Origin: Nemertoderma westbladi
Lineage: Eukaryota; Animalia; Xenacoelomorpha
DNA: 64,000 nucleotides
Direction: 5' to 3'
NCBI GenBank assembly: GCA_032718475.1
Contig: JAUCBJ010008861.1
Coordinates: forward strand, 8,088 to 72,087
Shown here piece by piece: positions 7,124-64,000 of the stretch (positions are counted from its first letter, which is position 1; every line of letters starts with the position of its first letter). The notes beneath the pieces are model-generated. The model did not search any database, was not told the origin of the DNA, and saw only the letters and a list, made by a program, of their open reading frames with translations. Position numbers and translations under genes: made by a program.

Positions 7124-7210
7124 TTCCAGATTCCATACCAAACTCCTGGTATCCTTCCCCAGGCTGCTTCTCATGTGGGACCTCCCCATCGCCCGTCTCT
7201 GGTTTCTCCT

Positions 7211-10771: not shown

Positions 10772-10802
<31 letters not shown>

Positions 10803-12709: not shown

Positions 12710-12940
12710 TGTTAAGTATATATTTTTGCCTTCCGGCTGAAATCTCGCAAAAATTCGAGATATAGTAATTTAATCGAATATTCGAATACATTTTTTGTCA
12801 AATAATTTGTTTTGTCTCAAATGTCAAATACGAAATTGGTTAATTCACAATAAAATAATATGAATTTAATTGTATAGTTACAGCAAAAACCAGTATAATA
12901 TTTAAACAAAATTGTAGCTCTATAGCTATTATACAGCATT

Positions 12941-17330: not shown

Positions 17331-17339
17331 AGCATTTAA

Positions 17340-20371: not shown

Positions 20372-23070
20372 TTACAATATTAAATGTGTTAATCATATAT
20401 TATCTTACATTACTGGTTTACCGGTCAGTTGTGTTATTCAGTTCAGTCAGTGCAGACTGGTCATAGTTAATGACCGCCACTGCCATACCGGTAACATCTG
20501 TATCTTAATCTGTATTTTCTGCGCATTTACTGGCGTGCTATTATCGTCCATGTTAATTAATATCGAAAGACAACAGAAACTTTCACTGTTTTTCCCAAAC
20601 GGCCTCGGCCAAAGCTAGTAGCACGATCCCCAGCAGAACGGTGACGCGTACTTTAACAACCCGGTCGGGATCTCTGATCCCGTCACAGTCATTAACTGCC
20701 ACCTGCCAATAAACTGTGACTGCAAGAACAAAGAAAAATAGAAAGATGGCGGAGGAAGGAACACCCCGATTATCAGAGGGAGAGAGGACGCCGCCGTGGA
20801 CCCCGGACGACACTAACCAAACGATCCGAGAGGCCGCGACGCGACGGTATCAGCCAGCTACGCCGCATTCACCGACGAGGGACGATCCGGTAGCCCAAGC
20901 GGAGGGGGGCTGTCAACCACGAGGGAGAGACGAGTCGACGCACGACGGCGGTCGGAGTACCGAAGTCACCGGCCAGCCACAGGCCGAGGGTGATGGACGG
21001 CCCACCGGAACAGCGATGGTGGGGCCGCCAGTATGATGCCGGACGAGGAGAGGAGGAGGAGTCGGAGAAGAGGACGTCGGGATGAGTGATCGGCTACGAC
21101 GGGCCTACAACGCCACCAAGAAACTGCTTAAGGAGGCCAAGGAAGGGAGAAAGGTAAACCAGCCTAAACTACATCAGAGGCTAGGTGAGTCGAATAAACA
21201 TTTTCGATATTTAGTCCGTTTTGGACAGGGAGAACTGGCGAGTGAGAGAGCGAGGGGGGTCGCCATGGAAATGTTTGAATTGTGGCGGTCCGGGGTAATG
21301 GAGCCTGAAGTAGTGTACGTAGGGCCTTATTTAGTGGATGCTAGGGGAATTAAGTTAGTGGGTTGGGGGGTCCTGCACGACGGCGAACCCGAGGTTAACC
21401 CTGAGGATTTGGTATCGTCGGTTAGCAAGAACCCCAGAAAGCAGGGGAAAGTTAGTAGGACAGAGAGGCGACGGGAGTCCGTCGCGACCGATAAGTCCGC
21501 TACATCCACTACATCCGCTAGTTACGCAGGGAGTAGTGGGGGTGAGTCAACCCAACGGGAGCCTGCAAGGCCACGCAGTCGCACAGGGAGAGGCGGGGTG
21601 AGTAGACCCAACAGGAGTGGAGATAGTGCATCGACTAGAGAGGGGCGTAGAAGCGAAGTAGGAGGTAGCGAAGTAAGAGGTGGCAAAGGGGGGGGGGGGG
21701 AGCTACGGGCACCCCACCATGAGAAATTAGTGGCAAAAGGGGGGGGGGCAGAGAATGTCCCACAAGCGTCGGCGGATAATGCGTGGGGCGAGTTAGGTGA
21801 ACCACGACACCCGATGGCAGAGAATAGTAGGGGGATTGCTAGTATCCCCAGGAGCGTCCAACCGGGTAAAGAGAGAGAGGTTGGCGCCGTGAGCAGGCAA
21901 GCGACGAGACGCCGAGCCCAGTCAGAAGACGGAAGAAGACAGTGGAGTTTATCCAGGAGGTTGAAGCGAGATCTCACAAAGGGGATCGCTACACAGAAGA
22001 GAGAAGAAGTGAAGAGAATAGAAGAAGCGTTGCTACGAGCAACTGGAGAGCAAGGATGGACAGTGAATCGTCGGCAGTAGAGATGGAGAGTCAGTGGAGA
22101 GTCAGTGGGGTCAAACTCCGGGAGATTGCCGTCGCCCCGGAGAGACACAGCCTGGTGAGATATATCACACACAGGTAGAAGGGTACTGGAAGTACCGGTG
22201 CGAGGACGAGGACAGAAGAGGGGATCGCAGATTGTGAAGGGGCATTAAATGGTAAGCCATTACGTGTACCGAAGGATGACCGGGGGTCATCAGGGGCCTT
22301 AATGCCGACGCACATATTGAGGGGGAGGCTAGCAGAGGTAGCATGTACCAGTGAGGATGACATGAAGGGTGGCATTCAACCGCCAAGTGACGACAAGATG
22401 GAGGGTGGCATTTTGCTGCCAGGGGACCAAGATGAGATCGGTGAGATGACAGAAAGACCCGATTTAACAATGGAAGAGAAGGGAAGGTCAGTTGCAAGAG
22501 AGTTGGAATTGACAAGGAGAGTGGGGCGAAGAATAAGAGGACCTATAGGGGGGCAGTGGGAGAGTTGCCTGCTGGAAGAATCACCCTTAGGTTGTTGAGT
22601 CGTCCAAAAAGTTGGACTGAAGGGGGGTGAAAATGGAAGAGTCAGATCCGTGGAAGTGAGAATAGGAGGCAAGATAGGAGCCAAAGATAGGAAGACCTAC
22701 AGGAGGGCTGTGGGAAAGTGCTGCCTGTTTGAAGGGGCACCTTAGAGTTTAGTCGTCCAATATGTTGGACTGAGGGGGGGTGGGAATGAGGGCGAGACGC
22801 CCTTCCCACACAAAATATAAAAAAATAATAAGCAAATAAAATAAGAAGCGAGATAGTAGAAAGTTAGAAAATAATAGTAGTAGATAGTACGTAGCACTAA
22901 GTAGTAGTTAGAAGTTAGGGAGTGTGGTATATTGACATATCACGAGAGTAGTAGCGGGGTACATAGTACCCTAGCAGTAGGGTAAATATTACAGTAAGAA
23001 GCCAGAAGTTAGAAGTTACGGAGTGTTGTATATTGACGTACCACGAGAGTAGTAGCGGGGTACATAGTAC
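20372..23070 (+). mobile_element. Second, internally deleted copy of BEL/Pao family A (partial 5' LTR, PBS, gag pieces, intergenic repeats)
   Basis: Inverted homology to 11100-12235, 9600-10320 and 5990-6500; LTR end TCACA at 20687 followed by GTCATTAACT. Confidence 0.85.
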
Positions 23071-25940
23071 CGGATAGACTTCCCTTGGAAAAGCGCGGTG
23101 CAGTCATTGACTACACGCACCTTGCCAGATTTGTCCGGGTGTTGAACAAAATGAAGTGGCAGGTAAAACGTTTGATCTGTGGTTACCTCTGGATTTAACA
23201 TCCTAATGGCGTATCCCTTTTGGAGATACATCTGAAGTTGCGCACTGTATTGCATATCATCACACAACAGCCGCTGCCGTATTGACTTAAGTCGTCTCAA
23301 AGCAAGCGGGTAGTTGTTAACGAGCTTAGGTTGTCCATGCCGCCACAATATGCCAACTTCGTAGTGGCCATTCGCTTCATAATCTTTAATGACCGTTTTT
23401 CCTGTTCTGACATAGCAGTCTCGTAACTACCGGGTTCTGCTGAGTCCTGTTCCAACCACTTAATGGTCTTCTCAGTCAGCAGTCGGTCAAGCGCTGCTTG
23501 CGCTGTGCCATAGTCCTCGTCTATGTCGTCCTCCGCTGCAGTGGCTAGTGTCCATGAGGCTGGTAGGCTCGCAAGCCTTCCGGTGTCACTAGTCAGCGTT
23601 GAAACGTCGTAAGGAGGTTCGACAACCTTTTGATCTATCAGTAGGCTCGCAAGCCTTCCAAGATCAACGACCGATTTTGAAGCCTGGTGAATGGGGTCAA
23701 TGGCCTTCAGATTTGTCGGTAGGCTCGCAAGCCTTCCAAAACCCTCATTCATCGAGTCATCCACAGCAACAACCCTTTGGTCTTCGGTAGTCAATACAAC
23801 CTGTTTCGCTGCAAGTAGCTGTAAGTCCGTGTGGTCTCATCCAGATCTATTACATCAGTATCAGTTACGTCAGTGGTAGCGACGCAAGTCTGTCGTAGTA
23901 CAGTCTGTACAATTGGACCATAGGAGTGTGAAGGAGAATTAGCTATCATAGTAGTCAATAAACTACACGTGCTCAATACGTCGTCCTCCTGATCACTTAC
24001 CTCTAGTGAATGCACAGGTGCTCTAGTATACCAAACTTTGGGAGTTCTACATGCATAAGGGTTGCCCGCTGTTATAACAGAAGGGCGTGTCTCCCATACT
24101 TTATGCAAGTTAAACTGGTTCGTCCCAATTAACATCGCAATTGAGTGATAATTAACAGGACATTCCGGTATTCCAAGATGTCGGATATACTTACGGTCTT
24201 CAGGTGATTGCTCTGGCACAGGGCCGAGCAGGTTACTAAAGTCCTTCGTAGCTGCAAAGGTCAAATTTCTTACCGAAAGTATTGAGCGTTCCTCCTTGCT
24301 GTGTTCCGCTTTGGAAAGAAGAGTATCTAAGGTTAATTTAACTCTCGTCCACTTTCGTCCTACTGGGCTCCTTCAGCTAAAGGCGCACCCACGAGGCGGA
24401 CGTGTTTCAACCACCCCTGGGGCCAGTCCGACTGATGTTCTTATCAGACCGGGCTGGAGGGTGGCCTGATGCTTCCCGGGTTCTGTTTTCAGTCCCCCGA
24501 TCAGGCGATCACACTGGCACAGCTCGTCGCACGTGTAGCCAGATGTTCGGCTACTGTCTACTTACTGTGGCCTGACTGTACATTGAGCCAACTCAGAGAG
24601 TCAACAAGCAGGTGAACCAGTCGATAGCGATCGAGCACCAAGGTCGCCCTTGGGTCTAACCAACAGTCTTGTCCCACGTGGGTTTGCGCTACCCAACATT
24701 GGAATTTTGACTCGTTTTCACCCGCCTCGCCGGCAGTATTGAGGGGAAGTAAGTTCCACAACAATACTAACTAGCTCGAAAGCTGGGAACAAGTAACCAC
24801 TTACCAGTCACTGTACACATGTACTCAACAGATGTTCACAATATCAAGTACACAACAGAAAACACAAAATCGAACATATACCTTGCACACACAGAGGACA
24901 AAATCGGGAAAGACGAAATCGGGGTCAAAATCAGAGGGGAGAAAATCAGAGGGGAAAAAATTGTATCGACTCATAAGAGAGTTGAGAGTACCTTATTTTG
25001 CCATCACGGCAAAATAACTTTGTGTGCACAAAGTATGCTGGGGCGCAGTAGAGATATGGTCCTACTAATACCAGCGGCATCTGGACCAACTGGCAAGGGA
25101 TACCATACTCATTCGCAGTGGCCACACATACACTCACGTGTACCATGTACCCACAGCAGCAGAAAGCTCAAAGACTCAAACAAATCCCAAAGACCAATCA
25201 GCTGAACATGGAGGCAATAACATATAGTATCAAAAAAACGGAACAACTGATGGCCAAAGGAACCCATCCAAGCCCCAAGCAAACTGCCACTGACGCCTAC
25301 ATACTCATCATAGTTCACACCACATGAACCACAAATCACGCCAAGCCACCACCCCTACTGTGTACAGAACTAGCAGTACGGCAACAGGGCGACTAGATGG
25401 TACCACGGCACCATGTCGATCCATGATTTGTTAGACAATGCACTCCCTTGCACTCAGAGCGATTTAACGTGCCCCTAGACCCTCACGAGTCCACCGCCGC
25501 CTGCTCCCTGCACCCCTATAGAGACCTCACCTCTTTAGGTACAGGGATCGCTCTTTTACCATGCATGCTCCTTACATTATACTGAGCAGTCTTACCTTTA
25601 CGTATAAACGCTTGCTCCCTTGGGTTCCGGTAATCTTTATAGGAATCACGCTAAACCCTTTCAATTGGTTCTGTGTGAGGAGTGTTATCGATGGTTGTTC
25701 CTCCCCTGCATGCATGTAAAAGGTGTCATCTTCCTCCTCATCCTCGTCCGGCGATCCTGATTGATCCATACAATCGGCGTAGAAAGTAAGGATTTCGCGC
25801 GGTGCGCGCTCTTTATAAAGCGCGTCGCATCTAGCCGCTTTATCTGGATGCTCTCATCGAAAGCGTTTAGTTAGAGTATGACTATTCGTGTGGAGTAACG
25901 CGTCGTGGTTATGTCCACATAGAGGACATTGTTGCTGCAG
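23071..25940 (-). pseudogene. Degenerate BEL/Pao gag-end/protease/RT-start fragment related to the 48927-63931 family
   Basis: TFAATKDFSNLLGPVP...WYTRAPV nearly matches ORF 54110-61165; Pao RT N-terminal motif FYLPLHFVQHPDKSGKVRVVND in ORF 23016-23348. Confidence 0.85.
24352..25540. mobile_element. Unclassified ~1.2-kb insertion splitting the protease region
   Basis: Homology to 57150-57200 stops at ~24351 and resumes at ~25541; no recognisable domain inside. Confidence 0.55.
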
Positions 25941-25949
25941 GCATAAATC

Positions 25950-35222: not shown

Positions 35223-35639
35223 TTAAACTTTGTAAGAAAGTAAATTTCTCACCACCGGCTGTGGACTGTATCTGTAAATAATATTGTAATGATCCCTGCC
35301 CATTGATCCTTCATGCCAAACTGCAATGTTCTAGTGAATCCCGGGTTGTGCTATGTCGACAAGTTGCGTTAACACTACTTAACTGCATATTATTTAAATT
35401 ATTTTAGTTAACTCTTACTATATCTGTCAAGTACCTAGATCTGCCTAACTGTTTCATGCCGAAGGGTGCCTTAAATTTTAGAATTATATTTATTTTATAC
35501 TAGAAAGCATGTAGCCCTTCGGGCCGCAGCTTTCTAGTGCACGTGCAGAGGATATATGAATTTGTGTGGAGAAATGTGTCGCAGATTGGAGAACTACAAC
35601 GAAACAGACACTATCGTAAAATAAAACACTGCTACTGAT

Positions 35640-39815: not shown

Positions 39816-39829
39816 TACATTGTTATTCA

Positions 39830-44167: not shown

Positions 44168-45156
44168 GGTGATCTTCCACATTAAACCATTCCACTCTGT
44201 TTCCCAAATGAATGCCTGTTCACCACTATGGGAGATCTTCCACATTAGACCCTTCCACTCTGTTTCCCAAAGGAATGCCTGTTCACCACCATGGGTGATC
44301 TTCCACAGTAAACCCTTCCTCTCTGTTTCCTAAAGGAATGCCTGTTCACCACCATGGGCAATCTTTAACAGTAAACCCTTCCACTCTGTTTCCCAAAGGA
44401 AAGCCTGTTAACCACCATGCGTGATCTTCTACATTATACCCTTCCACTGTGTTTCCTAAAGGAATGCCTGTTCACCACCATGGGTGATCTTCCACATTAA
44501 ACCATTCCACTCTGTTTCCTAAAGGAATGTCTGTTCACCACCATGGGTGATCTTCCACATTAAACCCTTCCACTCTGTTTCCCAAAGGAATGCCTGTTCA
44601 CCACCATGGGTGATCTTCCACATTAAACCATTCCACTCTGTTTCCTAAAGGAATGCCTGTTCACCACCATGGGTGATCTTCCACAGTAAACCCTTCCACT
44701 CTGTTTCCTAAAGGAATGCTTGTTCTCCACAGTTGTTGATCTTCCACAATAAACCCTTCCACCCTGTTTCCTAAAGGAATGCTTGTTCTCCAAAGTTGGT
44801 GATCTTCCACAATAAACCCTTCCACCCTGTTTCCTAAAGGAATGCTTGTTTTCCACAGTTGGTGATCTTCCACAATAAACCCTTCCACCCTGTTTCCTAA
44901 AGGAATGCTTGTTCTCCACAGTTGGTGATCTTCCACAATAAACCCTTTCACCCTGTTTCCTAAAGGAATGGCTCTTCTCCACATTTGGTGATCTTCCACA
45001 GAAACCCTTCCACCCTGTTTCCTAAAGGAATGGCTGTTCTCCACAGTTGGTGATCTTCCACAATAAACCCTTCCACCCTGTTTCCTAAAGGAATGGCTCT
45101 TCTCCACAGTTGGTGATCTTCCACAATAAACCCTTCCACCCTGTTTCCTAAAGGAA
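44168..45156. repeat. 61-bp minisatellite
   Basis: Unit ggtgatcttccacaataaacccttccaccctgtttcctaaaggaatg..., about 16 copies. Confidence 0.92.
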
Positions 45157-48570: not shown

Positions 48571-48926
48571 CTATGCGAAGTTTCGAAACTGTGCGAGTAA
48601 CTGTTGATACATCTATGTGGAGATGTGTGATATGTGGAGATGTGTGATAGCACGCCAACGCATCTTATGCCGATGTAGTAATATGGGTATTGAAATAATA
48701 TTAAATCAATGTACACTCTTAAAGCTGCAGCAAAAAAATGTAGCTAATTTCCTAGGTTACATATCTCGTCATATAAAATAATAATATTATTTTTAAGAAC
48801 ATTAATTTTACTACTTTGCAAAAATTCAATTAAAAAATAACCAGACATATACATTGTGGAATAAACTATTTCAGAAGCCTACAACAGCCATGCCATGGAT
48901 TGTATTTATGTTATTAGATTAGTGCA

Positions 48927-50846
48927 TAAATTGGAGAGATACGCCTATTCCTACTATCGGAAGAGACGGTAACAATACCTGCAATATCCTACTGTAAAGC
49001 TTGTAAATCAAATCATAAATCCGACCTTCTCACCAAAACAGTAAACCCCAAGTAAGCGAATATATTGCAGTATCGATCTCTTTTAACCGGTGAGGCAGAA
49101 AACAGTCTACGAGCAGACAAACTTCGATAAAACAAAATCCCGCGCAGCGAATCCTAAAATCAGGCTGACTCACTGACGGACTAAGAGGCTCGTATACTTT
49201 GCCGCGGTGTGATTTATATGGTTGGGCAAAGAGACGCTAGCTAGGTACAGAGCAGATTTAGAGATGTCTAACTAGCGGGCAAAGTGCAGTAAGGACGAAA
49301 GTTAATTTTATATATTTTGAGGTGTAAATAATTTCTAACGCGCGTGTGTTAATTCTGAACAGTCAAAGCAGTTTTGCTCCTTCACATATATAATTACTGG
49401 GTACGGTGTGCATTTTACGAATATTCTAATTTTATAACTTGTAGGTCCAATACTCACGAATGATAAGGTTCCTTCCCCTCTTGCGTATCTCCAGGACTCA
49501 AATTCAGGCATAAGGTTAATACTACGCCCAGAATTCGGCAATTTTAGGTACCAGGTCCCTGATACTAAGAAGAGATGTGTTAGTTTACTACTGTAGGCGT
49601 ACGGGTACTAATAGCTATCCTGGTTCCTATCTAGAATTTTAGTCACCCAGGTAGTCCGGGTAACTTCCTATTAGGGCGTTGGCGGGGACACGGTAGATGT
49701 TAGTATATCCCTGATAGCCTCAATTTATTTGCGCCTAGCGTAAACTGCCCTACCGCCTGAACGGTACAATCCCAATTCAGGTGAAAACACAGCAACCCCC
49801 TAGCCTACAAGTTCTGATGTAATAGACACGGTCGTACTGCAAATAGTCGCACACACACCTGTACTTAGCAAGAGTTAAGCGTACAGTTTGCTGCACCCTA
49901 ACCAATGTGTATGCCTTGTACCGGTGTGCCTACGTCCTATCTGCGTACTAGTATCTGCTCTCTCTCCCTCTCCCCCCCGTAGGAATATGAAGGTCTACTG
50001 CGGTTTTTCCTGAATCAAGACAGTACAGTCCCTATGATGTAATTTTGGGCTTACAGCGTGTCACTACGTCTACCTTTTGATCTTTTTGGTCTTACACTTA
50101 GGTAGCAAGGATCGAACGCTGTCTAACCTTTCAGGCGATGGGCGAATAACACTAGATGGTATTGCGGGTTGTCTCTCGTCTACATTCCCGTGATGTTCCC
50201 GTTCATTGCTGCGGCCCGATCTCTAGCCGGCCATCCTGTCCCTGAGTTTGTTCACCGTAGTGAAACCATATTAAAACAGATAGAAAGGCTGAGAGATGTG
50301 ACTAGTATTTCTGACTTTATTACAAAACATATAATAACTATTATACAATAAACAATGTAATCTGAAATAAGACAGAAAGTGAATGATGGAAATTGATGTG
50401 AAGTGAATAACTAATGAACAAATCGCACCTTTATATACTAAATTTGTGCCGCAATCAATCGAGAAAATTCTCGATTGTTCTATAGATTCTAACAAGGTTT
50501 TAAAGATAGCTATTGGTCCAGCTAATATATAACTTGCACGACATTGGTTACAATCAAATAACTACAGCCTTATTGGTACAGACAAATGCAATTAATTTGT
50601 AGCGGTTAATTTAAATGAGTTGAAATTCTACACAAAAAATAATTCGCACTTACTAGGATTCGAACTCGATACCTACTACACATATAATTTCCAACGCTCT
50701 ACCAACTGAGCTACTGAACCACTTGACCGATAGATGCATAATAGATAGAACCAATACTAATGAGAACTCAAAGCAATCTTTACAAAGTTAATTCGAATAA
50801 AATAAAATTTTGAAAATCCACGGCATTTAGGGAATATAATTCTATA
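48927..50846 (-). repeat. 3' LTR of family B
   Basis: No difference from 62012-63931 spotted by eye; identical small ORFs at the same offset; preceded on the minus strand by a short purine run GGAGCGG. Confidence 0.95.
50634..50720 (-). ncRNA. tRNA-derived Pol III-like cassette in the 3' LTR (A box, B box, T6)
   Basis: GGTTCAGTAGCTCAGTTGGTAGAGCG...GAGTTCGAATCCT...TTTTTT; D arm intact, acceptor and anticodon stems do not pair. Confidence 0.65.
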
Positions 50847-51745
50847 CCGCTCCATGAAAACAGGATATTATCGTGCATAAAATATACGGTTTTCACCAAT
50901 AATCAATCAAACTATAGAATACTTAGGGCGTACTTACATATTTACAATTAAGTTTCAAACAATACTTCCTTTCTACGTAATGATTCGATACAAAATAATT
51001 ACAAATTCAAACTTTACGTATTTAAGGCTTTACTAAGTAAGTACAATATAAATCTAAATTAAATTCACCAATATAAATCTATTGCATCTCAAATATTGCA
51101 TAAATTCAAACAATTACAAATAAATGAAAACAATAAGAAAGGCTCGCAAGTCTTCCATCTACTATTGCATCCCAAATATTGCATAAATTCAAGTAATTAC
51201 AAATACTTTCATACCTAAATGTAGATTGCATAAGTTTGGAATAATTACAAATATGAGTCTTTCTGAGCACAAATTTTTCTGTCTATAAAACTTTCTCTTT
51301 AGGTACAAATACTACTTATAAAATATAAATTGCATAATATTCGGAACAATACAAATTGCATAAGTTTGGAATAATATAAATTGTATAAGTTCGGAATAAT
51401 TACAAATATAAATATAAATTCTTACAAATATAAACTCTCTTTTTGGGTAGTCTTACTAAATATAGATATAAACTGCATAAGTTTAGAACAATATAAACCT
51501 TTGCATCTCAAATATGAAACATAAATCTTTCAAATATAAGTTCCTTCTAAACTTTCTAAATTTCATAAATTCGGAACAATACAAATTGCATAAGTTTGGA
51601 ATAAACACAAATATAAAATATAAGTTTTTACTAAATATGAGTCCCTTTCAGAATACAAACTTTCTAAATATAAAACATATAATTCAAATAAATCACAAAT
51701 CATAAGAAAGGCTCACGAGTCTTCCGTCCACCCTTGCCCTCCCTT

Positions 51746-52945
51746 TTATCGTTTAGTTGATCGAGCCCTGCCGCGTCCTCGAAAACTGCGCACAGGTGAC
51801 TTTGCTCGCGATATGGGACTTGTGGGGCGAGTCACTGGTTTACTTGGGACGTTGAGAGACGGTGCAACTATTTCCTCACAAATTCGTCTATTTGGCATCC
51901 CAAAACCTCGACCGATTCCTCGTGACCGATCAGTCGTCACTACAGTTGGTAGAACGTCTGGGAACTCGCGAAAGGCGGACGACGCAGACCCAAGAGTAGC
52001 TTGCGCCCCCTGTTGATCAGCTGGTGTATGTCCCGATCCTCCTACTGGTTCTCTTGGAAGTGATACCGTATCCCGAGTAACTCGAATAGTCGGCTCAACT
52101 CCCTTGCGTTCTTCTACATTAATAATTTTCTTCAATTGTTGGCCCACTTTCTGGACCCGTATGATCCTACCCTGCCCGTCCTCCCGAGGGTGACGTGCAG
52201 ACGGCGCAGCCGGAGTGGCTGGTATATTCGTCGCCTCTAGGACCTCTTCTTCCTCGAATACGCTCGCTCGTATACGTTTGTGGTAAAACGCAGCTCGGTA
52301 CGCCCATGCGACGGTTAACCAAGCTCCTTTATTCCGCTTTTCGGTTCGGAAACGATCAAATTCACCATACGTGATACGATTTACGACTTTCTGAAAATTC
52401 CACGTGTTTTTGTTATCTGGGTGAATCTGTAACAGATACTCGCGCACCACTCGGAATCCGCTGTCGTGGGGCAAAATATCGACAACCTCGATAAGTTCGT
52501 CATATTGGGGCATAGCGGAGATGTATCCTTCCGACATCATCGTCTGGGGATTTACCGCCCAAAATCCGAGATGCGCTCTCATCGGAAACCGTCTTCTTTG
52601 TGCTGATACATGTTCATCGGCTAAATCTTCCCACTCATCAAATAACTTCCTCACGAGTTTTACAGATTCGTGTTCATAAGGTATGTCCCTTAGTTGGCAT
52701 TCAGATGCTCGATGTCCCTTTATATTGCAATAAGTACATTGAGCCATAAATCTCCAGCAAGTATAAAAGGTATGAGACCCTTGATCCCCACACCATCCAC
52801 AGATTAGCTGAGTCGTAGTAATGTGCTTTCCACTGCACTTTGCCATATGATGTCCAGCGACGCCACATTTACTACACATCGTATTGGCAGGGTACCACAC
52901 TCGTTCGTATATAAGATCTCCAATCGGTCGAGCGCTTCCTCCCAT
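51746..52945 (-). CDS. Accessory triple CCHC zinc-knuckle protein (frame open upstream to ~53120)
   Basis: CSKCGVAGHHMAKC, CGWCGDQGSHTFYTC, CTYCNIKGHRASEC; basic C-terminal tail; 399 aa uninterrupted. Confidence 0.8.
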   Translation of the reverse strand: MGGSARPIGDLIYERVWYPANTMCSKCGVAGHHMAKCSGKHITTTQLICGWCGDQGSHTFYTCWRFMAQCTYCNIKGHRASECQLRDIPYEHESVKLVRKLFDEWEDLADEHVSAQRRRFPMRAHLGFWAVNPQTMMSEGYISAMPQYDELIEVVDILPHDSGFRVVREYLLQIHPDNKNTWNFQKVVNRITYGEFDRFRTEKRNKGAWLTVAWAYRAAFYHKRIRASVFEEEEVLEATNIPATPAAPSARHPREDGQGRIIRVQKVGQQLKKIINVEERKGVEPTIRVTRDTVSLPREPVGGSGHTPADQQGAQATLGSASSAFREFPDVLPTVVTTDRSRGIGRGFGMPNRRICEEIVAPSLNVPSKPVTRPTSPISRAKSPVRSFRGRGRARSTKR

Positions 52946-53072
52946 ACTATAATCGTAATCATCTGGGTCTATGGGTTGGTAGGTTTCTGAAGGTTGTATA
53001 CAAACTATAGCATCTGTTGCTTCAAGTTGTCGAATCTCCGTCTGAGATTTCTTCGGGAGGTTCCTTTCTATT

Positions 53073-53447
53073 TCAAGAAGTTCCTCTAAAGGATCGTCGG
53101 CAATCGTAGTAGTTACTTCGAATCATCACCAAGGTGACCGATAGGCGCACGCGTCTGCCGTGATTCATCCGTAATCTCCACGATACGTTCTCCTTCATAG
53201 GGTAACAATGTAAACATAGATGGTCTTTCGATAAGAGATCCCGCACAGCGAAGATACACGTCTCGAAATATACTAAATCCTGCTCGAGTAAAGGCATTGC
53301 TGTCTTTGCGAGCTTCGCTGTACTTTCTGATAATTCCTTTATACCAAATATAGTGTAGTCTTTTGCTCCAAATCGTTCGAATGAAGCTGCCGCCTCCTCT
53401 TGGATATCATATCCCCATCTCGGCTCTCCTTGTATCCCTTTCTCCAT
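53073..53447 (-). CDS. Accessory ORF N-terminal part, function unknown
   Basis: WGx10FxRx3KxY motif shared with ORF 4820-5434; overlaps the open upstream frame of the zinc-knuckle ORF. Confidence 0.6.
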   Translation of the reverse strand: MEKGIQGEPRWGYDIQEEAAASFERFGAKDYTIFGIKELSESTAKLAKTAMPLLEQDLVYFETCIFAVRDLLSKDHLCLHCYPMKENVSWRLRMNHGRRVRLSVTLVMIRSNYYDCRRSFRGTS

Positions 53448-54109
53448 AATTAGGGTGTAGTTACATAATCATTACTACTAGAGGGAATACAACAGAGTTT
53501 GTAGTTAGTTGTGAGGAGACGTGAGAGTTTCGTCTGCCTTTTGGGCTTCGACAACGCTCTAACCTCCTACCCATAGCCTAAGATCTAGGGTTTCTTTAAT
53601 GACACGCTGCTTCTTATCTAAAATTTTTTGCCGAAGTAAAAACGAATTTGGGCTAAACTGGCCGTGAGTCTAAAATACTCACTTTTTGATCCCAAACTAT
53701 CATCAGAAAATAAGCAGTCAAGAATTAGTAATAAATATAGGGGAGTCTATTTATTTGATGTAACTTATTGAAACAAGACCGTGTAAAATTTAATTAAAAT
53801 TTTAAGAAAGGCTCGCAAGTCTTCCTCTCTTGTTTCTCTAATTTTAAGTTCCACCCGACTGTACCCTGAAATCTATTCACTGGAGAAATTTTTAAAAATT
53901 TTTCAAATCCAAATGGATTGTCTAAAATTTCGAAAATGTCTCAATATTGTGAGTTCCAAGTAGAATTCCATTTCTTATACCTACAAATCCCGCTCCTATG
54001 TGACACATAAGGGTACTACCCTCAATGTTCACATATAAAGACAATGGAATTCTACCGCTGTCCTTACTACGGTGTACAGGTACGTGGAAATCTATTTGTA
54101 AACTCCTAA

Positions 54110-57100
54110 TTATTTACTAGTATTAGGTGGAGATTTGTAGTCTCCGGACTCGTTACGAGTCTCTTCAAGAAGTACGAGACGTTGAGTCGGTCTGTCTACT
54201 GTACGACCGTCAATTGTTCGTACCGTCACAGTTCTTGTCACTCCATCCATAGATGGATGTGTGGCTAAAATGACACCTGTTATCCAGAAGCGTCTTTTTA
54301 GATTCACTTCTGCCAACAGCACGTGATCTCCCGGCTTTAATGCGCGGGTGTTATTGTACCAGTTTGTTCTGGCAGAAATAGAGGGCAAATAATGGTTTTG
54401 CCATATTTCCCAGAATTTGTTAGCCAGTAGTTGCGTGATTTTCCACGCTTTTCTTCCGTAACTATCGCTTTCTAGTGGAATAGAAATAGGTGTCAAAGTT
54501 GTCGGTGCCTGCATTAGCAGGTGTGCCGGTGTTAAAGCAAACTGGGATTGTTTGTCATCGGGTACTAATACTATTGGTCTAGTATTTAGTATTGCCTCGA
54601 TTTCAACAAACAATGTTGTCAGTTGGTCGTCTGTTAATATGTGGTTTACTGGAATGACCTTTGCCATGGCTGTCTTTATAGATCTAATCAATCTCTCCCA
54701 GACTCCGCCTCTCCAAGGACTATCTGGAGGATTAAACTTCCAAACAATCTTGTGAGGTTGTAGTTCGTTCGAGATTTGATCATGATCTAATTTCTTAAAG
54801 GCTCTAGCAATCTCATTCCGAGCACCAACGAAGTTTGTCCCTTGGTCTGAGTACAAGCATTTTACTAGTCCGCGTCTAGCGATAAATCGCCGCAGTGCTA
54901 GTATAAACGCGTTGGTGGAAAGATCCATCACACGTTCAATGTGAACTGCCCTACTGGACATACATGTGAAAATCAGTCCCCAGCGTTTTACTAGTATACG
55001 TCCACGTTTCGTATGTATGGGACCAAAGCAATCAATTCCAGTCTCTGTAAAAGGTGGTCTGAATGCTTGAAGTCGTGCTTGTGGTAGTTCACTCATTTCT
55101 TGGGTACCTATTCTAGAATGTACCTTTTTACAAATAATACACGTACGTGTCACTGAACTCAATGCTTTACTGGGTCTAATTAATACAAATCTAGTACGTA
55201 AGTAGGAAAGACAGTGGTGTCTTCCAGCGTGTTTCAGATGTAAATGTGCGTCCAGTATCATTGCACGTTGTAGTTCGTGGTGTTGCGGTATTATTATTGG
55301 GTACCTAAAGTTTGTGTTAAAGTCAATGTTTTGAAGCCGAGATTTATGACAAATTAAGCCATTATAAATAATCGGACTCCAACTCAGTATCGGTGACGAC
55401 TTGATTGGTTGACCTTGATTTATAGATGTGAATTCGCGCGCGAAATATCGCAGTTGGTAATGGCGAATTAATTTAATCTCACACCTGTCAATCTCAGCCA
55501 ATGTAAGTCGACGTGTAAAGTCACGTTTGCCTTTAACGTATTGTACGAAACGTACAATCCACGCTAATTTTCGGCAAGCGTTCGACCAAGAGTCTGTTAA
55601 GTTTACAATTCGGTCGACGTAAGTATTTGTGACGTCATCAGGTAAGTCAATGGAGATTTTGGAAGGTTTTGAATTACTAGAAGGGCCCACGGGTCCGCCG
55701 GTAAGTATTCCCTTGTTGACTGTTGATCCGTCCGGGTCTACAAGTAATTTGTCCTTCTTCGTCTTCTTACCTTGATTGTCGGTACTTTGTAAGTCGATCG
55801 TTAATGGTGGTTTGAACTCTATGGGGTCAGCAGGTTTTGGTAAACTTAATTTTCTGCCGACATTAATCCCAGGTCTCACCGTAGGTTGTAGGTTCGGTAT
55901 GTCTCTTGAGCGCAAAGTAACACCTGTATTTACATTAGCGTAGGTACTACCCACATCTGTAATACATGAGGTTTCACCGTGCTTATGGTTGCTCAAGTGT
56001 GTCAAAATTGGTAGTTTGTCAATACAAGGCCGCTCCAATAGGGAAACTGCGGCTTTATTGTTAGTCAATACATTACTAGTGTCTAGTCGACTGTCTAGTA
56101 GTGTGTCTGGCGATACGTCTGGTAACGTATCTGGTTGTTTGTCAATAGAAGGCCGCTCCAATAGGGAAACTGCGGCTTTATTGTTAGTCAATACATTACT
56201 AGTGTCTAGTCGACTGTCTAGTAGTGTGTCTGGCGATACGTCTGGTAACGTATCTGGTTGTTTGTCAATAGAAGGCCGCTCCAATAGGGAAACTGCGGCT
56301 TTACTGTTTGTCAGTGCGTTACTAACGTCTGGTGGAACATTTTGTGATATGTCTGGCAAAATGTCTGGTTGACTGTCTAGTAACGTGTCTGGTTGACCGT
56401 CTGGCGATATGTCTGGTCGACCGTCTGGCGATATGTCTGGTGTAGAAAGGCTCGCAAGTCTTCCTCTCTTGACCTTTGAAGTTATATCTTTCCATTTCGC
56501 CTTCGGTTTCTTCTTGAGTTTAGTTGCCGTCGTCCTTTTCTTTGTATCGACGGGCATTGTTGAGGTTATTGGGGTAGGTAGACTCGCAAGCCTATCATCT
56601 GTCGTCGATGGAATCTCTAGCTGACTCGTCTTCCCCCCTAGTTCTAAACTCACCTTGTGGGTTAGCTGCTCCTTGTGACTTATCATACTAGTTACACGTC
56701 TGTCATGTTTTGTCGACTGTAGTGTAGTATGGTTCACGTCGTGTGAAAAGGAATGGATTGAATTTGTAGTTAATAAACTACATGTACTCTGTACATCGTC
56801 TTCCTCGTCACTTACGTCTAGTGTGCGCACAGGCGCTCGAGTATACCACCCTATCGGCGTTCTGCAGGCGTATGCGTTTCCTGCTACAACTGCCGATGGT
56901 CTGGTTTCCCACACCTGATGTAGGTTGAATTGGTCCGTCCCGATCAGCATTGCTACCGATCTATAATTGGCAGGACATTCGGGTACACCAAGGTGTCTGA
57001 AATACTTACGGTCCTCTAGAGATTGTGCCGGCACTGGACCTAGTAGGTTACTAAAGTCCTTCGTGGCCGCAAAGGTTAGATCTCTAAAGGGCAACAAAGA

Positions 57101-60100
57101 CCTCTCCCTCTCGCTGTGTTGCGATCTTGGAAGAAGAGAGTCTAAGTCCAACTTAACTCGTGTCACTGGTATTGCACGCTGTCCGTGCATACTACTTACT
57201 GTATAACTGACGTGCTTACCTTGTCTAAGATCTGTTACGACGTCAGCGATCTTTTCATCCACGTAACTGTGAGATGAGGCTGAATCTAGAATCGCGTAGA
57301 TCCTCTTACTCCCTTTTGTGCCAGTAACTTTAATCGGGATTACACTGAATCCCTTCAGTTGGTCAGTGGTCAGGAGCGCGATTGACGGTTGTTCGTCTCC
57401 ATTTGAATATTCGTCGTCTTCTGATTCTTCGTCCGACGATCCGGATTGTTCTGAAAAGCAATCCTCTATATGGGTCACGAAAGTCGGAGTCGTTTTCGAT
57501 TCCCGTTTTCGGTAAGCCGCATCACATCTCGCTGCTGCTTCCGGGTGTTCCCTGGCGAAGCGTTTCGTCGGCGTGTGGCTGTCTGTGTGGAGCAGACCGT
57601 CGTGGTTGCGTCCACAGGATGGACAAGTGTCAGTATTTGGGCAATCCTTGCGCACGTGTCCGTGTCGCGTACACCGCCAACAAGAGTCCAGTGGCCGTAT
57701 CTGCAGCCGTCGTTCTTCTGAGTTCAACTCGCGAAATTGTCGACAACCTCGTAACTTGTGACCAATATACCGCTTACCCAAATGTTCGCAGTATTGGCAT
57801 CCGTTGAAGTCGGCGCTGAGTTGCTGTCTCGTCTGTTTCGTTCCAATGGGCGCAGATACTCTATTACCGTCTGAGAATTGTCGTGATTCCGTCGGTGTGG
57901 CGTAAGTGGCCGTCTTTGTGGATGTTGTCTGGGGTTTTTGTCGGTTAGAGGATGGCAGTGTGATCCCTTCTGCCACGATGTGCTGGTCGGTATAGTTAGA
58001 TCGAGTCTCTACTACCGCCTCCCTGGATATTAAAAGGTACACATCTTCTAATTTTAGGAATCCTCCTCGCTCCTCTCGCTGATATTCGACCTTCCTCCAC
58101 TCCCGACGAAGTCGATGGTGGAGTCGTCCTATTATCTTTAATAGGACTGTAGGCGTATTCCCGTAATCAAGTTGTCCAATTGATCTTAAGGTAGTGATAG
58201 CGTTCTTAATCTCGTCAGCCAGTTTTAGTAAGTCGACGGGTTTAGTGATAGCCCCTCCCTTACAGAGTTCTTCTATTACTGACCTGGCCATACTCACTGT
58301 ACCTCCGTATATCGAAGTCAAACGATCGTACGCTAGTTCGAAAGCGTCCGGTACACCAACGAAAGTCTCCGCCAAACGTTTAGGTTCTCCTGACAACGTT
58401 TGGAGCAAGTAATTGAACTTCTCTCGTGACGTAAAGGCGCACACGGCGATCTGGGATTCAATATAGTCTACGAAGGTATGCCAGTGTTTTGAGCTACCGG
58501 AGAACTTCGGTGGTTGTTGTACCGGCAATCCCTGTCTGGCTGCGAATTTCGCTATCTCCTCGGCAACGTTCAGAGTTTCGCGTCCTTGGTTGGTAACCTG
58601 GTTGATGTTCTCCCTTCTTGGCGCTTTTCCCTGATACGATGTGGGGTTTGAAGGTACCGGTCTTTGTGGTCCCTTCGGGTGTCTATTGTGTTCGAATTCG
58701 GAATTTCTCGAACTGTCGGTGTAACCTTCCTCCAGACGTTCCTCGATCTGAGCCAACTTGTTGACAACTGGTCGCAGAATGTCGGCGAACTGTTGTGTAC
58801 TAATTGCGTCCGTTGGTTGTAACGCCTTCTGTGTTGGTGTATTCTGTGGAGGATTATCTGCAAAAGAGTTGTCTGAACGCTCGCGTTTATATTCATCGGC
58901 CGCCCCCGTTCTAAATACCTCGCGTTTCGGGTAATCCGATTCGCTCGAAGTACTACTATCATCTGGATATGGTGGTCGACGTGCTCGCGTCCGTTGCGTC
59001 GTACTAATTCTAACGGTTCGTTTCGGAACATCGTCTCGCTTTCGTTGTTCGGTAGGCTCACAAGTCTTCCTCGAAGTCGTAGATTGCGATGTAAACTGGT
59101 TGAACGGTCGCGTCTCTGTTCTCCGTTGTTCGGTAGGCTCACAAGTCTTCCTCGAAGTCGTAGATTGCGATGTAAATTGGTTGAACGGTCGCGTCTCTGT
59201 TCTCCGTTGTTCGGTAGGCTCACAAGTCTTCCTCGAAGTCGTAGATTGCGATGTAAATTGGTTGAATGGTCGCGTCTCCACTGTTCTCCGTTGTTCGGTA
59301 GGCTCACAAGTCTTCCTCGAAGTCGTAGATTGCGATGTAAATTGGTTGAACGGTGGGCGAATGACAGCATTTGAATCCAAAGGCCTTGTTGGTCGAAACG
59401 TCATTGGGTAATCGTAGTGCGTAACGGGTTTTGGCGTCAAAGGTGGACTCACCTGTTTAGTCGTCAGTAGCGCAGGTCCGGTCAATAAACTACTACGATC
59501 TGTAATCGGTGGGTTACTTACCTTGACTCTCGGAATAGGCGACGACGTTGCTCTTGGCGGTATAAACTCGTTCGGAATAACAAACCTGTGTTCCGTCGCA
59601 CCATGGATAGGAGAAATATCACTACTACCCGCAATCGAAACAGGTTCCTTAGTCGTAACCGGTGCAAACATATGAGTTACCTGTGGGAATCGTTGACACA
59701 CGTCTTTTACTAATTGCCGTTCCCGTCCGGGTGCTCCTACGCTTCCTTCCTTCTTCCGTTCCTGAATTTGGCGATGTCTTACCTCTAACTGGTCCAAATC
59801 ATGTCCGTCACGAGATCTCATCGATCGATCGCGGGCCTTTTGATCCAGATCTTCCTCAGCGTTCGCTAATTCTCTCGCCTTCTTCTCAAGTTCGAAATGA
59901 AGTTTAGCTGTCTTCTCTCGTTGTTCCGTTTGTCGTTGTTGCGCCTCAAATTCTGCTTGTCGTATGGCGGATTGAGCTTTTATTTGCCGTGTTTTCATTT
60001 CGGCCCGTGCTTCCGAAACTAACCTGTCTCGTTCTAATTCCGCCGCTGCCGCTGCCGCTTGTCGCTCTGACTCGGCCGCTGCCGCTGCCGCTTGTCGCTC

Positions 60101-61165
60101 TGACTCGGCCGCTGCCGCTGCCGCTTGTCGCTCTGACTCGGCCGCTGCCGCTGCCGCTTGTCGGGCAATGTCTACCTCTAACCTTTCTACTTCAGCTGCT
60201 TCTAATTCAGCTTGTTCCTGTAGATGAGAGATTCTTGCTATATTCGCAACGCGTAGCTTCTCTTCTTCTACTGCTGCCTGCATCACTAGAAGTTGAGCTT
60301 GTTCCTCCATTTCTCGTCGTTGTCGGTAGAATTCTTGCTGTTGTCGAGCAACTTCTGACGTAACCATACTTCCCTCGCAGATTTCGCTACGAATACTTAC
60401 CAGTGATTGATCCAATATTCCCGGTGCCGATTCGATTTGTGCGAGCGAAGTTTCCCTCGTAGCCTCCGGCACGGTTTCCCAATCTCCGACGTCCTCGCCG
60501 CACATGCGTAAGTGATCCGTCAGGTGTTTCAATTGTCCATCCAGTCGGTACAGTTCCTGTTCTTCCTCGGGCTGTAATAATTCGTCCGAAACTGACTCAC
60601 CTAACAACTGGTCCGCTTGTTCCTGTTGTATCTGTCTAATCGTCGACTTAAACTGAATCAGTTTCTCTCTAGTGATCATTAGTTTCTCGAGGATTCTAAG
60701 TTGAGTATCCATGTCCTGTCTCTGTCTAGCTAGATCTTGTAGGCCCACTAGATTATCTACGGACTTATATACTTTACTCTGTACTCTAACCTGGAGGGTG
60801 TAGAACTCGAATCGAGACATCGGAGCGGTCAACCCGTCTAATATGCGTTGGCCTTCTCCAATGCTCCTGGTTATATGCGCCATGTAACCTCCGACGCTTC
60901 TAACCACACTTTCTGTACTTCCTGCTGAACTTACCATTTCCGTTTCCCTGTATCTAGGTTGCGGAACAGTTAGAAAGTCCTCGGTCCTGCCGTCGCCTCG
61001 TACTACGGCATCCGGTACTCCCGTTGGATGTACTGGTGACGCACACGGTGTAGGTTCGGTAGGCTCGCGAGTCTTCCCCTGTTGTTCTTCCGCTGCTGAC
61101 TTATCCGCGTCACATGAGTCATAGTCGGTTTGTGTGTTCTTCGTATAGTCTTGTTTGTCACTCAT
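54110..61165 (-). CDS. BEL/Pao Gag-protease-integrase polyprotein (2351 aa) without RT/RNase H
   Basis: KFSGSSKHWHTF...YLLQTLSGEP (DUF1759-like), CWRCTRHGHVRKDC, protease AILDSASSHSY, integrase HHCC and D-D-E (GIDCFGP, SDQGTNF, WERLIR); no YxDD RT motif between PR and IN. Confidence 0.95.
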   Translation of the reverse strand: MSDKQDYTKNTQTDYDSCDADKSAAEEQQGKTREPTEPTPCASPVHPTGVPDAVVRGDGRTEDFLTVPQPRYRETEMVSSAGSTESVVRSVGGYMAHITRSIGEGQRILDGLTAPMSRFEFYTLQVRVQSKVYKSVDNLVGLQDLARQRQDMDTQLRILEKLMITREKLIQFKSTIRQIQQEQADQLLGESVSDELLQPEEEQELYRLDGQLKHLTDHLRMCGEDVGDWETVPEATRETSLAQIESAPGILDQSLVSIRSEICEGSMVTSEVARQQQEFYRQRREMEEQAQLLVMQAAVEEEKLRVANIARISHLQEQAELEAAEVERLEVDIARQAAAAAAESERQAAAAAAESERQAAAAAAESERQAAAAAAELERDRLVSEARAEMKTRQIKAQSAIRQAEFEAQQRQTEQREKTAKLHFELEKKARELANAEEDLDQKARDRSMRSRDGHDLDQLEVRHRQIQERKKEGSVGAPGRERQLVKDVCQRFPQVTHMFAPVTTKEPVSIAGSSDISPIHGATEHRFVIPNEFIPPRATSSPIPRVKVSNPPITDRSSLLTGPALLTTKQVSPPLTPKPVTHYDYPMTFRPTRPLDSNAVIRPPFNQFTSQSTTSRKTCEPTEQRRTVETRPFNQFTSQSTTSRKTCEPTEQRRTETRPFNQFTSQSTTSRKTCEPTEQRRTETRPFNQFTSQSTTSRKTCEPTEQRKRDDVPKRTVRISTTQRTRARRPPYPDDSSTSSESDYPKREVFRTGAADEYKRERSDNSFADNPPQNTPTQKALQPTDAISTQQFADILRPVVNKLAQIEERLEEGYTDSSRNSEFEHNRHPKGPQRPVPSNPTSYQGKAPRRENINQVTNQGRETLNVAEEIAKFAARQGLPVQQPPKFSGSSKHWHTFVDYIESQIAVCAFTSREKFNYLLQTLSGEPKRLAETFVGVPDAFELAYDRLTSIYGGTVSMARSVIEELCKGGAITKPVDLLKLADEIKNAITTLRSIGQLDYGNTPTVLLKIIGRLHHRLRREWRKVEYQREERGGFLKLEDVYLLISREAVVETRSNYTDQHIVAEGITLPSSNRQKPQTTSTKTATYATPTESRQFSDGNRVSAPIGTKQTRQQLSADFNGCQYCEHLGKRYIGHKLRGCRQFRELNSEERRLQIRPLDSCWRCTRHGHVRKDCPNTDTCPSCGRNHDGLLHTDSHTPTKRFAREHPEAAARCDAAYRKRESKTTPTFVTHIEDCFSEQSGSSDEESEDDEYSNGDEQPSIALLTTDQLKGFSVIPIKVTGTKGSKRIYAILDSASSHSYVDEKIADVVTDLRQGKHVSYTVSSMHGQRAIPVTRVKLDLDSLLPRSQHSERERSLLPFRDLTFAATKDFSNLLGPVPAQSLEDRKYFRHLGVPECPANYRSVAMLIGTDQFNLHQVWETRPSAVVAGNAYACRTPIGWYTRAPVRTLDVSDEEDDVQSTCSLLTTNSIHSFSHDVNHTTLQSTKHDRRVTSMISHKEQLTHKVSLELGGKTSQLEIPSTTDDRLASLPTPITSTMPVDTKKRTTATKLKKKPKAKWKDITSKVKRGRLASLSTPDISPDGRPDISPDGQPDTLLDSQPDILPDISQNVPPDVSNALTNSKAAVSLLERPSIDKQPDTLPDVSPDTLLDSRLDTSNVLTNNKAAVSLLERPSIDKQPDTLPDVSPDTLLDSRLDTSNVLTNNKAAVSLLERPCIDKLPILTHLSNHKHGETSCITDVGSTYANVNTGVTLRSRDIPNLQPTVRPGINVGRKLSLPKPADPIEFKPPLTIDLQSTDNQGKKTKKDKLLVDPDGSTVNKGILTGGPVGPSSNSKPSKISIDLPDDVTNTYVDRIVNLTDSWSNACRKLAWIVRFVQYVKGKRDFTRRLTLAEIDRCEIKLIRHYQLRYFAREFTSINQGQPIKSSPILSWSPIIYNGLICHKSRLQNIDFNTNFRYPIIIPQHHELQRAMILDAHLHLKHAGRHHCLSYLRTRFVLIRPSKALSSVTRTCIICKKVHSRIGTQEMSELPQARLQAFRPPFTETGIDCFGPIHTKRGRILVKRWGLIFTCMSSRAVHIERVMDLSTNAFILALRRFIARRGLVKCLYSDQGTNFVGARNEIARAFKKLDHDQISNELQPHKIVWKFNPPDSPWRGGVWERLIRSIKTAMAKVIPVNHILTDDQLTTLFVEIEAILNTRPIVLVPDDKQSQFALTPAHLLMQAPTTLTPISIPLESDSYGRKAWKITQLLANKFWEIWQNHYLPSISARTNWYNNTRALKPGDHVLLAEVNLKRRFWITGVILATHPSMDGVTRTVTVRTIDGRTVDRPTQRLVLLEETRNESGDYKSPPNTSK

Positions 61166-61999: not shown

Positions 62000-62011
62000 T
62001 CATATTCCTAC
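62000..62011 (-). promoter_or_regulatory. Non-tRNA PBS of family B (GTAGGAATATGA), complementary to LTR segment 63064-63075
   Basis: Abuts the 5' LTR end; no TGG; 12-nt perfect reverse complement within the LTR. Confidence 0.7.
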
Positions 62012-63931
62012 TAAATTGGAGAGATACGCCTATTCCTACTATCGGAAGAGACGGTAACAATACCTGCAATATCCTACTGTAAAGCTTGTAAATCAAATCA
62101 TAAATCCGACCTTCTCACCAAAACAGTAAACCCCAAGTAAGCGAATATATTGCAGTATCGATCTCTTTTAACCGGTGAGGCAGAAAACAGTCTACGAGCA
62201 GACAAACTTCGATAAAACAAAATCCCGCGCAGCGAATCCTAAAATCAGGCTGACTCACTGACGGACTAAGAGGCTCGTATACTTTGCCGCGGTGTGATTT
62301 ATATGGTTGGGCAAAGAGACGCTAGCTAGGTACAGAGCAGATTTAGAGATGTCTAACTAGCGGGCAAAGTGCAGTAAGGACGAAAGTTAATTTTATATAT
62401 TTTGAGGTGTAAATAATTTCTAACGCGCGTGTGTTAATTCTGAACAGTCAAAGCAGTTTTGCTCCTTCACATATATAATTACTGGGTACGGTGTGCATTT
62501 TACGAATATTCTAATTTTATAACTTGTAGGTCCAATACTCACGAATGATAAGGTTCCTTCCCCTCTTGCGTATCTCCAGGACTCAAATTCAGGCATAAGG
62601 TTAATACTACGCCCAGAATTCGGCAATTTTAGGTACCAGGTCCCTGATACTAAGAAGAGATGTGTTAGTTTACTACTGTAGGCGTACGGGTACTAATAGC
62701 TATCCTGGTTCCTATCTAGAATTTTAGTCACCCAGGTAGTCCGGGTAACTTCCTATTAGGGCGTTGGCGGGGACACGGTAGATGTTAGTATATCCCTGAT
62801 AGCCTCAATTTATTTGCGCCTAGCGTAAACTGCCCTACCGCCTGAACGGTACAATCCCAATTCAGGTGAAAACACAGCAACCCCCTAGCCTACAAGTTCT
62901 GATGTAATAGACACGGTCGTACTGCAAATAGTCGCACACACACCTGTACTTAGCAAGAGTTAAGCGTACAGTTTGCTGCACCCTAACCAATGTGTATGCC
63001 TTGTACCGGTGTGCCTACGTCCTATCTGCGTACTAGTATCTGCTCTCTCTCCCTCTCCCCCCCGTAGGAATATGAAGGTCTACTGCGGTTTTTCCTGAAT
63101 CAAGACAGTACAGTCCCTATGATGTAATTTTGGGCTTACAGCGTGTCACTACGTCTACCTTTTGATCTTTTTGGTCTTACACTTAGGTAGCAAGGATCGA
63201 ACGCTGTCTAACCTTTCAGGCGATGGGCGAATAACACTAGATGGTATTGCGGGTTGTCTCTCGTCTACATTCCCGTGATGTTCCCGTTCATTGCTGCGGC
63301 CCGATCTCTAGCCGGCCATCCTGTCCCTGAGTTTGTTCACCGTAGTGAAACCATATTAAAACAGATAGAAAGGCTGAGAGATGTGACTAGTATTTCTGAC
63401 TTTATTACAAAACATATAATAACTATTATACAATAAACAATGTAATCTGAAATAAGACAGAAAGTGAATGATGGAAATTGATGTGAAGTGAATAACTAAT
63501 GAACAAATCGCACCTTTATATACTAAATTTGTGCCGCAATCAATCGAGAAAATTCTCGATTGTTCTATAGATTCTAACAAGGTTTTAAAGATAGCTATTG
63601 GTCCAGCTAATATATAACTTGCACGACATTGGTTACAATCAAATAACTACAGCCTTATTGGTACAGACAAATGCAATTAATTTGTAGCGGTTAATTTAAA
63701 TGAGTTGAAATTCTACACAAAAAATAATTCGCACTTACTAGGATTCGAACTCGATACCTACTACACATATAATTTCCAACGCTCTACCAACTGAGCTACT
63801 GAACCACTTGACCGATAGATGCATAATAGATAGAACCAATACTAATGAGAACTCAAAGCAATCTTTACAAAGTTAATTCGAATAAAATAAAATTTTGAAA
63901 ATCCACGGCATTTAGGGAATATAATTCTATA
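62012..63931 (-). repeat. 5' LTR of family B
   Basis: Direct repeat of 48927-50846; sense termini TATAGA...AATTTA. Confidence 0.95.
63719..63805 (-). ncRNA. tRNA-derived Pol III-like cassette in the 5' LTR
   Basis: Identical to 50634-50720. Confidence 0.65.
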
Positions 63932-64000
63932 GTGCAATATATTAGTGTTTATTACGTACATAATTACTTATAATATATATTTAGTGTGACGGCAAGAAAT

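Follow-up and report, generated by a model that had tools for sequence, protein, structure and literature searches.

A very young Bel/Pao retrotransposon copy in Nemertoderma westbladi with an open Gag-protease-integrase frame and without reverse transcriptase and RNase H

LTR retrotransposons normally end in TG..CA and carry a primer site for a tRNA. BEL/Pao elements are usually 4.2–10 kb long with LTRs of 0.2–1.2 kb, according to one survey (de la Chaux and Wagner, 2011; PMC3118150), and Tf1 and Tj1 are known to prime themselves (PMC4600332). Elements that have lost part of pol are known from several systems. Internally deleted, non-autonomous derivatives exist for Troyka (PMC12440569), sugar beet families keep Pol remnants and the TR-GAG elements of plants are termed “semi-autonomous” for keeping Gag (PMC13570524), and identical LTRs in non-autonomous copies have been discussed for roo together with a non-autonomous scenario (PMC3087523). 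No description of a Bel/Pao element that lacks reverse transcriptase (RT) and keeps integrase (IN) was found in the titles and abstract openings of the openly available papers listed, and family tables may still contain such cases.

The element presented here is located on the minus strand (63,931 -> 48,927) of a 64,000-nt stretch of Nemertoderma westbladi DNA, the whole of which is called the window, and spans 15,005 bp. It possesses the paired LTRs and target site duplication (TSD) of Bel/Pao elements (Table 1). An earlier note on this DNA had described the LTRs as identical in appearance, the TSD as perfect and the element as recently mobile, and all of this holds: the LTRs agree at 1,920/1,920 positions, GTGCA stands on both sides, and the zero differences place LTR divergence below 0.16% at 95%, if the assembly is right, so that the copy is very young. 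The termini are TA..TA rather than TG..CA (48,927, 50,846, 62,012 and 63,931), yet the 5-bp TSD is perfect. Both LTRs also harbor a stretch that resembles a tRNA, in which A- and B-box-like motifs are seen by eye (window 63,730–63,807), and ARAGORN returned no tRNA genes.

Table 1. Features of the element and of its decayed relative in the window (positions of the window; aa, residues of the main ORF).
Feature	Position	Strand	Remark
TSD GTGCA, right copy	63932..63936	+	Flank sequence
5' LTR	62012..63931	-	1,920 bp, TA..TA ends; identical to 3' LTR
Candidate self-primer site, LTR nt 857–868	63064..63075	-	Pairs with primer-binding-site position; putative function
Primer-binding-site (PBS) position	62000..62011	-	12 nt complementary to site within LTR
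Gag-PR-IN ORF, single	54110..61165	-	2,351 aa from first Met, without stop
DUF1759, Bel/Pao Gag domain, aa 888–1025	58091..58504	-	Pfam E 5.7e-11
Gag zinc knuckle (zf-CCHC), aa 1161–1177	57635..57685	-	Pfam E 0.081, below cut-off; one of three Cys motifs, aa 1123–1195
Aspartic protease (PR) region	56816..57373	-	Catalytic Asp1294; homologue alignment
Post-protease spacer, aa 1480–1540	56546..56728	-	One RLASL motif, as in RT-bearing relative
Break point	56545..56546	-	Likely site of in-frame RT-RNase H deletion; sibling contigs diverge on both sides
Low-complexity tether ahead of IN	55631..56545	-	305 aa, common to siblings; contains 123-bp repeats
Pre-IN segment, HHCC, DDE core, DUF5641	54146..55618	-	Pfam and alignment
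Second ORF (ORF2) with CCHC knuckles	51746..53468	-	458-aa open frame 51746–53122; appears broken near 5' end
Candidate PPT (weak)	50847..50855	-	Short purine-rich stretch adjoining 3' LTR; read from sequence
3' LTR	48927..50846	-	1,920 bp
TSD GTGCA, left copy	48922..48926	+	Flank sequence
Decayed relative	23016..24372	-	PR (74% aa identity), three RLASL motifs in the spacer, RT start, then truncated

The main ORF is uninterrupted, as had been claimed, and its Pfam matches at E up to 1 are DUF1759, zf-CCHC, Integrase_H2C2 and DUF5641, which gives it the DUF1759 Gag and the H2C2/DDE/DUF5641 integrase of Bel/Pao. All top matches in protein searches are Bel/Pao polyproteins (32–43% identity), and the best 120 of the 1,793 homologues retrieved with the IN region carry Bel/Pao domain sets at 32–41% identity. 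PR precedes IN in the element, and PR is followed by an RT start in the relative within the window. The catalytic residues of PR and IN are indeed present: Asp1294 agrees with all 14 aligned homologues (60 tried), H1974, H1979, C2009, C2012, D2045, D2107 and E2157 agree with 60/60, and 92 of the 111 near-invariant IN columns are kept. Additionally, the N-terminal region of Gag is swollen by in-frame tandem repeats of 81 and 33 bp (59,043–59,354 and 60,042–60,163).

RT and RNase H (RT-RH) are absent from this copy. Neither RVT_1 nor Peptidase_A17 gave a Pfam match in the element at E up to 1. A custom RT-RH profile of 801 positions, running from the PR end to the IN start, was built with no more than 50 of the 120 Bel/Pao homologues, and 114 of these 120 cover at least 600 of its positions; the element matches it at positions 10–115 (PR end) and 691–800 (pre-IN) only, and no other frame of the element scores. 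The core left blank holds the motifs that we take to be RVVFD (209), YxDD (333) and RNase H (556–652). A divergent RT hidden in the linker was considered and is ruled out by Pfam, the six-frame custom profile, the motif search and composition, so that the profile scan proposed in the earlier note upholds its observation that no RT or RNase H motif is present. Lengths agree with this picture, with 606 aa from the PR end to the IN core in the element vs a homologue median of 854 (765–979, n = 130 of 267). An autonomous LTR element encodes RT and RNase H; this one encodes neither.

Between the PR region and the pre-IN segment lie 380 aa (aa 1480–1859) rich in P, D, S and T, as the earlier note had reported, with 42–45% of these residues, 0–1.6% W+F+Y+C (vs 9–10% in PR and IN) and a 123-bp tandem repeat present 2.6 times (56,009–56,324). 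Such a composition suggests disorder. A protein search with the spacer and linker matched none of 977 candidates at E 0.01 (candidate lengths 107–343 aa). The earlier note had further proposed that this linker replaced RT-RH, and here we part from it, because variant contigs cover the linker in all runs and contigs diverge at 56,545 without bridging. If RT-RH is missing at that break, about 60 aa of the linker would be post-PR spacer and about 305 aa the native tether of the family, and the bulk of the linker is therefore likely the family's own unusually long tether, with no replacement of RT-RH. In homologues, the distance between the PR-end and RNase H end motifs has a median of 601 aa (n = 130 of 267); in the element, 102 aa lead from the PR-end motif to the break. 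From the break to the IN core it has 504 aa; in homologues 231–317 aa separate the RNase H end motif from the IN core (153 of 267). The tether would thus exceed that of each of these 153 by about 250 aa, and a tether of such length, itself unusual, counts against the explanation that we favor.

The decayed relative bears on where the loss took place. Its fragment at 23,019–23,426 matches RT-RH profile positions 115–220 (E 4e-26) and stops short of YxDD, which bears out the claim that it retains the RT start. In this relative, a block ahead of RT begins about 30 aa from the last RLASL motif (profile score of the block weak, 3.1 bits). The break in the element is located 16 aa from the start of its spacer RLASL motif, and at about that distance the RT-bearing relative continues into the pre-RT block. 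The element contains 10 copies of a 16-nt quasi-palindromic motif, in coding and non-coding parts alike (61,077, 59,070–59,316 (four sites), 56,577, 56,464, 53,825, 51,725 and 51,156; up to 2 mismatches, counted without a shuffle control), the relative has three (23,581–23,737), and the rest of the window has none. This motif, which encodes the RLASL repeats, is a candidate cis signal. The window also harbors more decayed Bel/Pao-like Gag-PR pieces (286–2,252, 7,000–11,882, 20,375–22,970 and 25,599–25,955), two of which form an inverted pair at about 93% identity, as well as an element with long near-perfect inverted arms (12,940–17,331; 598 bp at 100%) and satellite arrays with units of 33 bp (about 140 copies), short C-rich units and units of 63 bp (30,634–35,223, 39,826–41,955 and 44,167–45,156).

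Public contigs from five runs (X1–X5) contain this stretch with word shares of 0.35–0.67. The source individual is probably absent from these runs (best word share 0.67), and several alleles of the window stand at 0% in them. On 51,000–59,000, X1 gave 10,221 contigs and X4 4,151, and the many variants among them spanned all of Gag, PR, linker, IN and ORF2; X5, which may be RNA (a guess), has a depth below 10. The many variants show a multi-copy family, depth itself giving no copy number, and the siblings are 90–100% identical to the element. In X3 the ORF2/3' region (51,000–53,400) stands at about 10–40 times the Gag depth, unlike X1 and X4; depth of this kind cannot rank parts of the element. 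Every run compared yielded variant contigs over the tether, which one X3 contig (55,421–55,825) joins to IN. At 56,545, PR-matching contigs end and continue into other DNA (two in X2; one in X3, by 238 nt), while tether-matching contigs end at the same base and continue the opposite way (one in X3, by 36 nt; two in X4), so that loose ends at this base are seen in three samples from three studies. Facing loose ends at one base indicate that siblings hold extra DNA where the element has its join, at least 238 nt by length, although they have the spacer, the tether and IN in common with it.

Depth at the junction tells the same story. In X3, the bin 56,531–56,577 has a depth of 667.3 and the two non-bridging contigs alone predict 667.29, which leaves 0 of 27 X3 contigs to bridge the junction. 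The same bin dips in X2 (33,937 vs 94,861 and 103,253) and X4 (12,389 vs 50,380 and 32,666), equally deep dips being found within the 123-bp repeats too. No bridging form occurs among the 24 pieces listed, beyond which stand 1,903 further pieces and 78 loose ends; contigs lose rare variants, and a minority bridging form may exist in X2 or X4. From its position, we infer that the extra DNA of the siblings is RT-RH, which would amount to about 500 aa or more in a family organized as its homologues are. Since the break sits where the relative proceeds towards RT and where siblings hold extra DNA, RT-RH was likely lost by one in-frame deletion. The earlier note had itself named a one-off deletion, with other copies that differ, as the case against its model; the contigs point towards that case, the position of the break suggesting RT in the siblings.

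Considering the above, we regard the element as probably a young, internally deleted copy that lost RT-RH in frame and whose linker is mostly native tether. A multi-copy Bel/Pao LTR family has here left a very young copy that is devoid of RT and RNase H, likely through a single in-frame deletion at base 56,545 (aa 1541). Template switching in reverse transcription and deletion in a source copy are established mechanisms for such joins. Here the deletion may have arisen by template switching during the element's own cDNA synthesis, or in the source copy shortly before, and its in-frame outcome would be a chance of one in three. The copy could still produce Gag, PR and IN, but any renewed movement would require its RNA to enter a particle together with the Pol of an intact sibling. 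In the public contigs, no evidence of repeated movement of the deleted copy was found and no second deleted locus was seen.

Two other readings concern the join itself. One is that the assembler dropped an RT-RH stretch or joined two copies, making the LTRs identical in the process. The unbridged junction in all listed public contigs, the multi-copy nature of the family and the repeat-rich window are compatible with such an error, which we nevertheless judge improbable given the perfect TSD, the frame that remains open across the join, the lack of a tandem repeat at the break and the copy-specific alleles on both of its sides. The other supposes that the whole abundant family lacks RT, that its siblings merely have a longer linker and that RT is provided by a distant helper, for example the lineage to which the 23-kb fragment belongs. 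We find this most improbable. Protein searches retrieved no RT of this Bel/Pao family, which says little as the collections hold no close relative (best identities 41–43%). In X1 and X4 linker depth is about that of Gag, and even depth is expected with a native tether as well; the break, moreover, falls where the relative goes on to RT. An RT-less family had also been read from the even linker depth, and this reading of the depth was dropped as contigs diverge on both sides of 56,545.

The earlier note had concluded that the element is semi-autonomous, making its own particle and integrase and taking RT and RNase H in trans. The observation beneath this conclusion is confirmed and the interpretation is partly supported: the copy cannot make these enzymes and any further movement needs them in trans, but its assignment to a semi-autonomous kind is unsupported. 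The corresponding rival to a single deleted copy is a helper-dependent subfamily, which would give Gag, PR and IN, take RT-RH from intact siblings and have inserted more than once; we hold it to be unlikely. All cis signals appear to be present in the element, and its LTRs are identical despite the deletion. Near-fixed differences between the element and the runs, counted from the best 47 of more than 300 ORF rows, fall on third codon positions at 12 of 15 domain sites (P = 3e-4), which suggests that the parent lineage was under selection on Gag and IN, at a time that cannot be dated relative to the deletion; this bias is compatible with both an autonomous parent and a semi-autonomous lineage. 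Second-position changes occupy 3 of 5 near-fixed PR sites and none of the 10 sites of Gag and IN (P = 0.02). Together with the apparent break in ORF2, they hint at damage older than the last insertion, hence at one hop or more with borrowed enzymes, and this is the best support for the earlier model. Against the subfamily stand the absence of a bridging contig in X3 and among the listed X2 and X4 pieces, the limited share of rows behind the site counts, and the break in ORF2, which could be an assembly indel. As for ORF2 itself, it is not env-like by Pfam and it is related to frame 3,991–4,536 of another element in the window (26% over 107 aa, E 2e-7). A homologue search returned 0 of 80 candidates for it, and its best Atlas score (0.88), to fungal CCHC proteins, is a lead only.

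We studied the recurrence of such losses among 267 homologues, 222 of which are informative in that they span the PR end to the IN start. Thirteen of these lack more than 30% of the RT-RH core and ten lack at least 85% of it in frame (P0004, P0066, P0075, P0119, P0126, P0139, P0140, P0166, P0182 and P0234), although one of the two homologue queries was itself without RT and may enrich RT-less rows. P0004, P0119, P0126, P0140 and P0234 are NCBI gene models, whose apparent loss may be an artifact of a called intron. A quick IN tree was made of the element, the ten RT-less polyproteins and 45 others; the branch of the element is long in this tree, the RT-less label needs 9 changes, at least 7 of them forced, and 100 of 500 shuffles are as low as 9. 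Losses of RT-RH thus recur in Bel/Pao and are not special to this element. Four unrelated-looking RT-less cases resume at profile positions 642–659, around the RNase H end motif. In the cluster of P0075, 7 of the 15 listed members share one junction without RT-RH and 2 continue into RT, the full-length members with the junction differing by 3–5 aa. This cluster, from another lineage, lends support to the helper-dependent subfamily, but one locus with several alleles, or the splicing of RNAs, may account for its members. A common junction is also present, on two contigs, in P0140 and P0286, both of them gene models.

The PBS position of the element is complementary to a site in its own LTR, and with this and its TA..TA ends the element departs from the norm of TG..CA termini and a tRNA primer. 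An 11-mer of the PBS/LTR match was present in 12 of 20,000 LTR shuffles. The match site in the LTR is preceded, at about 450 nt, by a TATA-like box, and the match motif is repeated about 36 nt downstream. The pairing makes this Bel/Pao element a candidate for self-priming.

A single deleted copy carries little weight, such copies being common by-products of retrotransposition. The element nonetheless points to a Bel/Pao family that is active and divergent and has an uncommon anatomy: very long LTRs, TA ends, candidate self-priming, a tether of 300 aa and an extra CCHC ORF. The bolder proposal is that a Gag-PR-IN subfamily shed exactly RT and RNase H, kept IN under selection and shared particles with intact siblings, and that RT-less, IN-keeping forms are a recurrent undescribed class of Bel/Pao, represented here by a lineage that primes itself and depends on borrowed RNase H even for making its primer; we consider this proposal doubtful. 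If the deleted form proved to be multi-copy, it would offer a natural test of cis and trans Pol functions, and one overlooked by RT-based surveys.

Compared with known systems, the element resembles BEL/Pao (Belpaoviridae) in its one Gag-Pol ORF, DUF1759 Gag, PR ahead of IN and HHCC-DDE-DUF5641 integrase. It differs in its size of 15.0 kb and LTRs of 1.92 kb, set against the 4.2–10 kb and 0.2–1.2 kb given in PMC3118150, and also in its missing RT-RH, long tether, TA..TA ends, 3' CCHC ORF and long branch on the IN tree. The RT-less public polyproteins are likewise in-frame fusions of Gag/PR and IN that lack the RT-RH core, but with short joins instead of a 300-aa tether, and on the quick IN tree they form no single clade with the element. 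Like Tf1 and Tj1, the element has a PBS position complementary to a site in its own LTR (12 nt); those two are Ty3/gypsy elements with the match at the RNA 5' end, whereas here the match has a TATA-like box some distance upstream. With Troyka, the sugar beet families, TR-GAG and roo, it shares young LTRs with a TSD, a partly lost pol and a presumed need for an intact partner. Those systems, as described, keep Gag, Gag-PR or decayed remnants and are shown as families, whereas this element is seen as one copy that holds Gag, PR and IN in one open frame.
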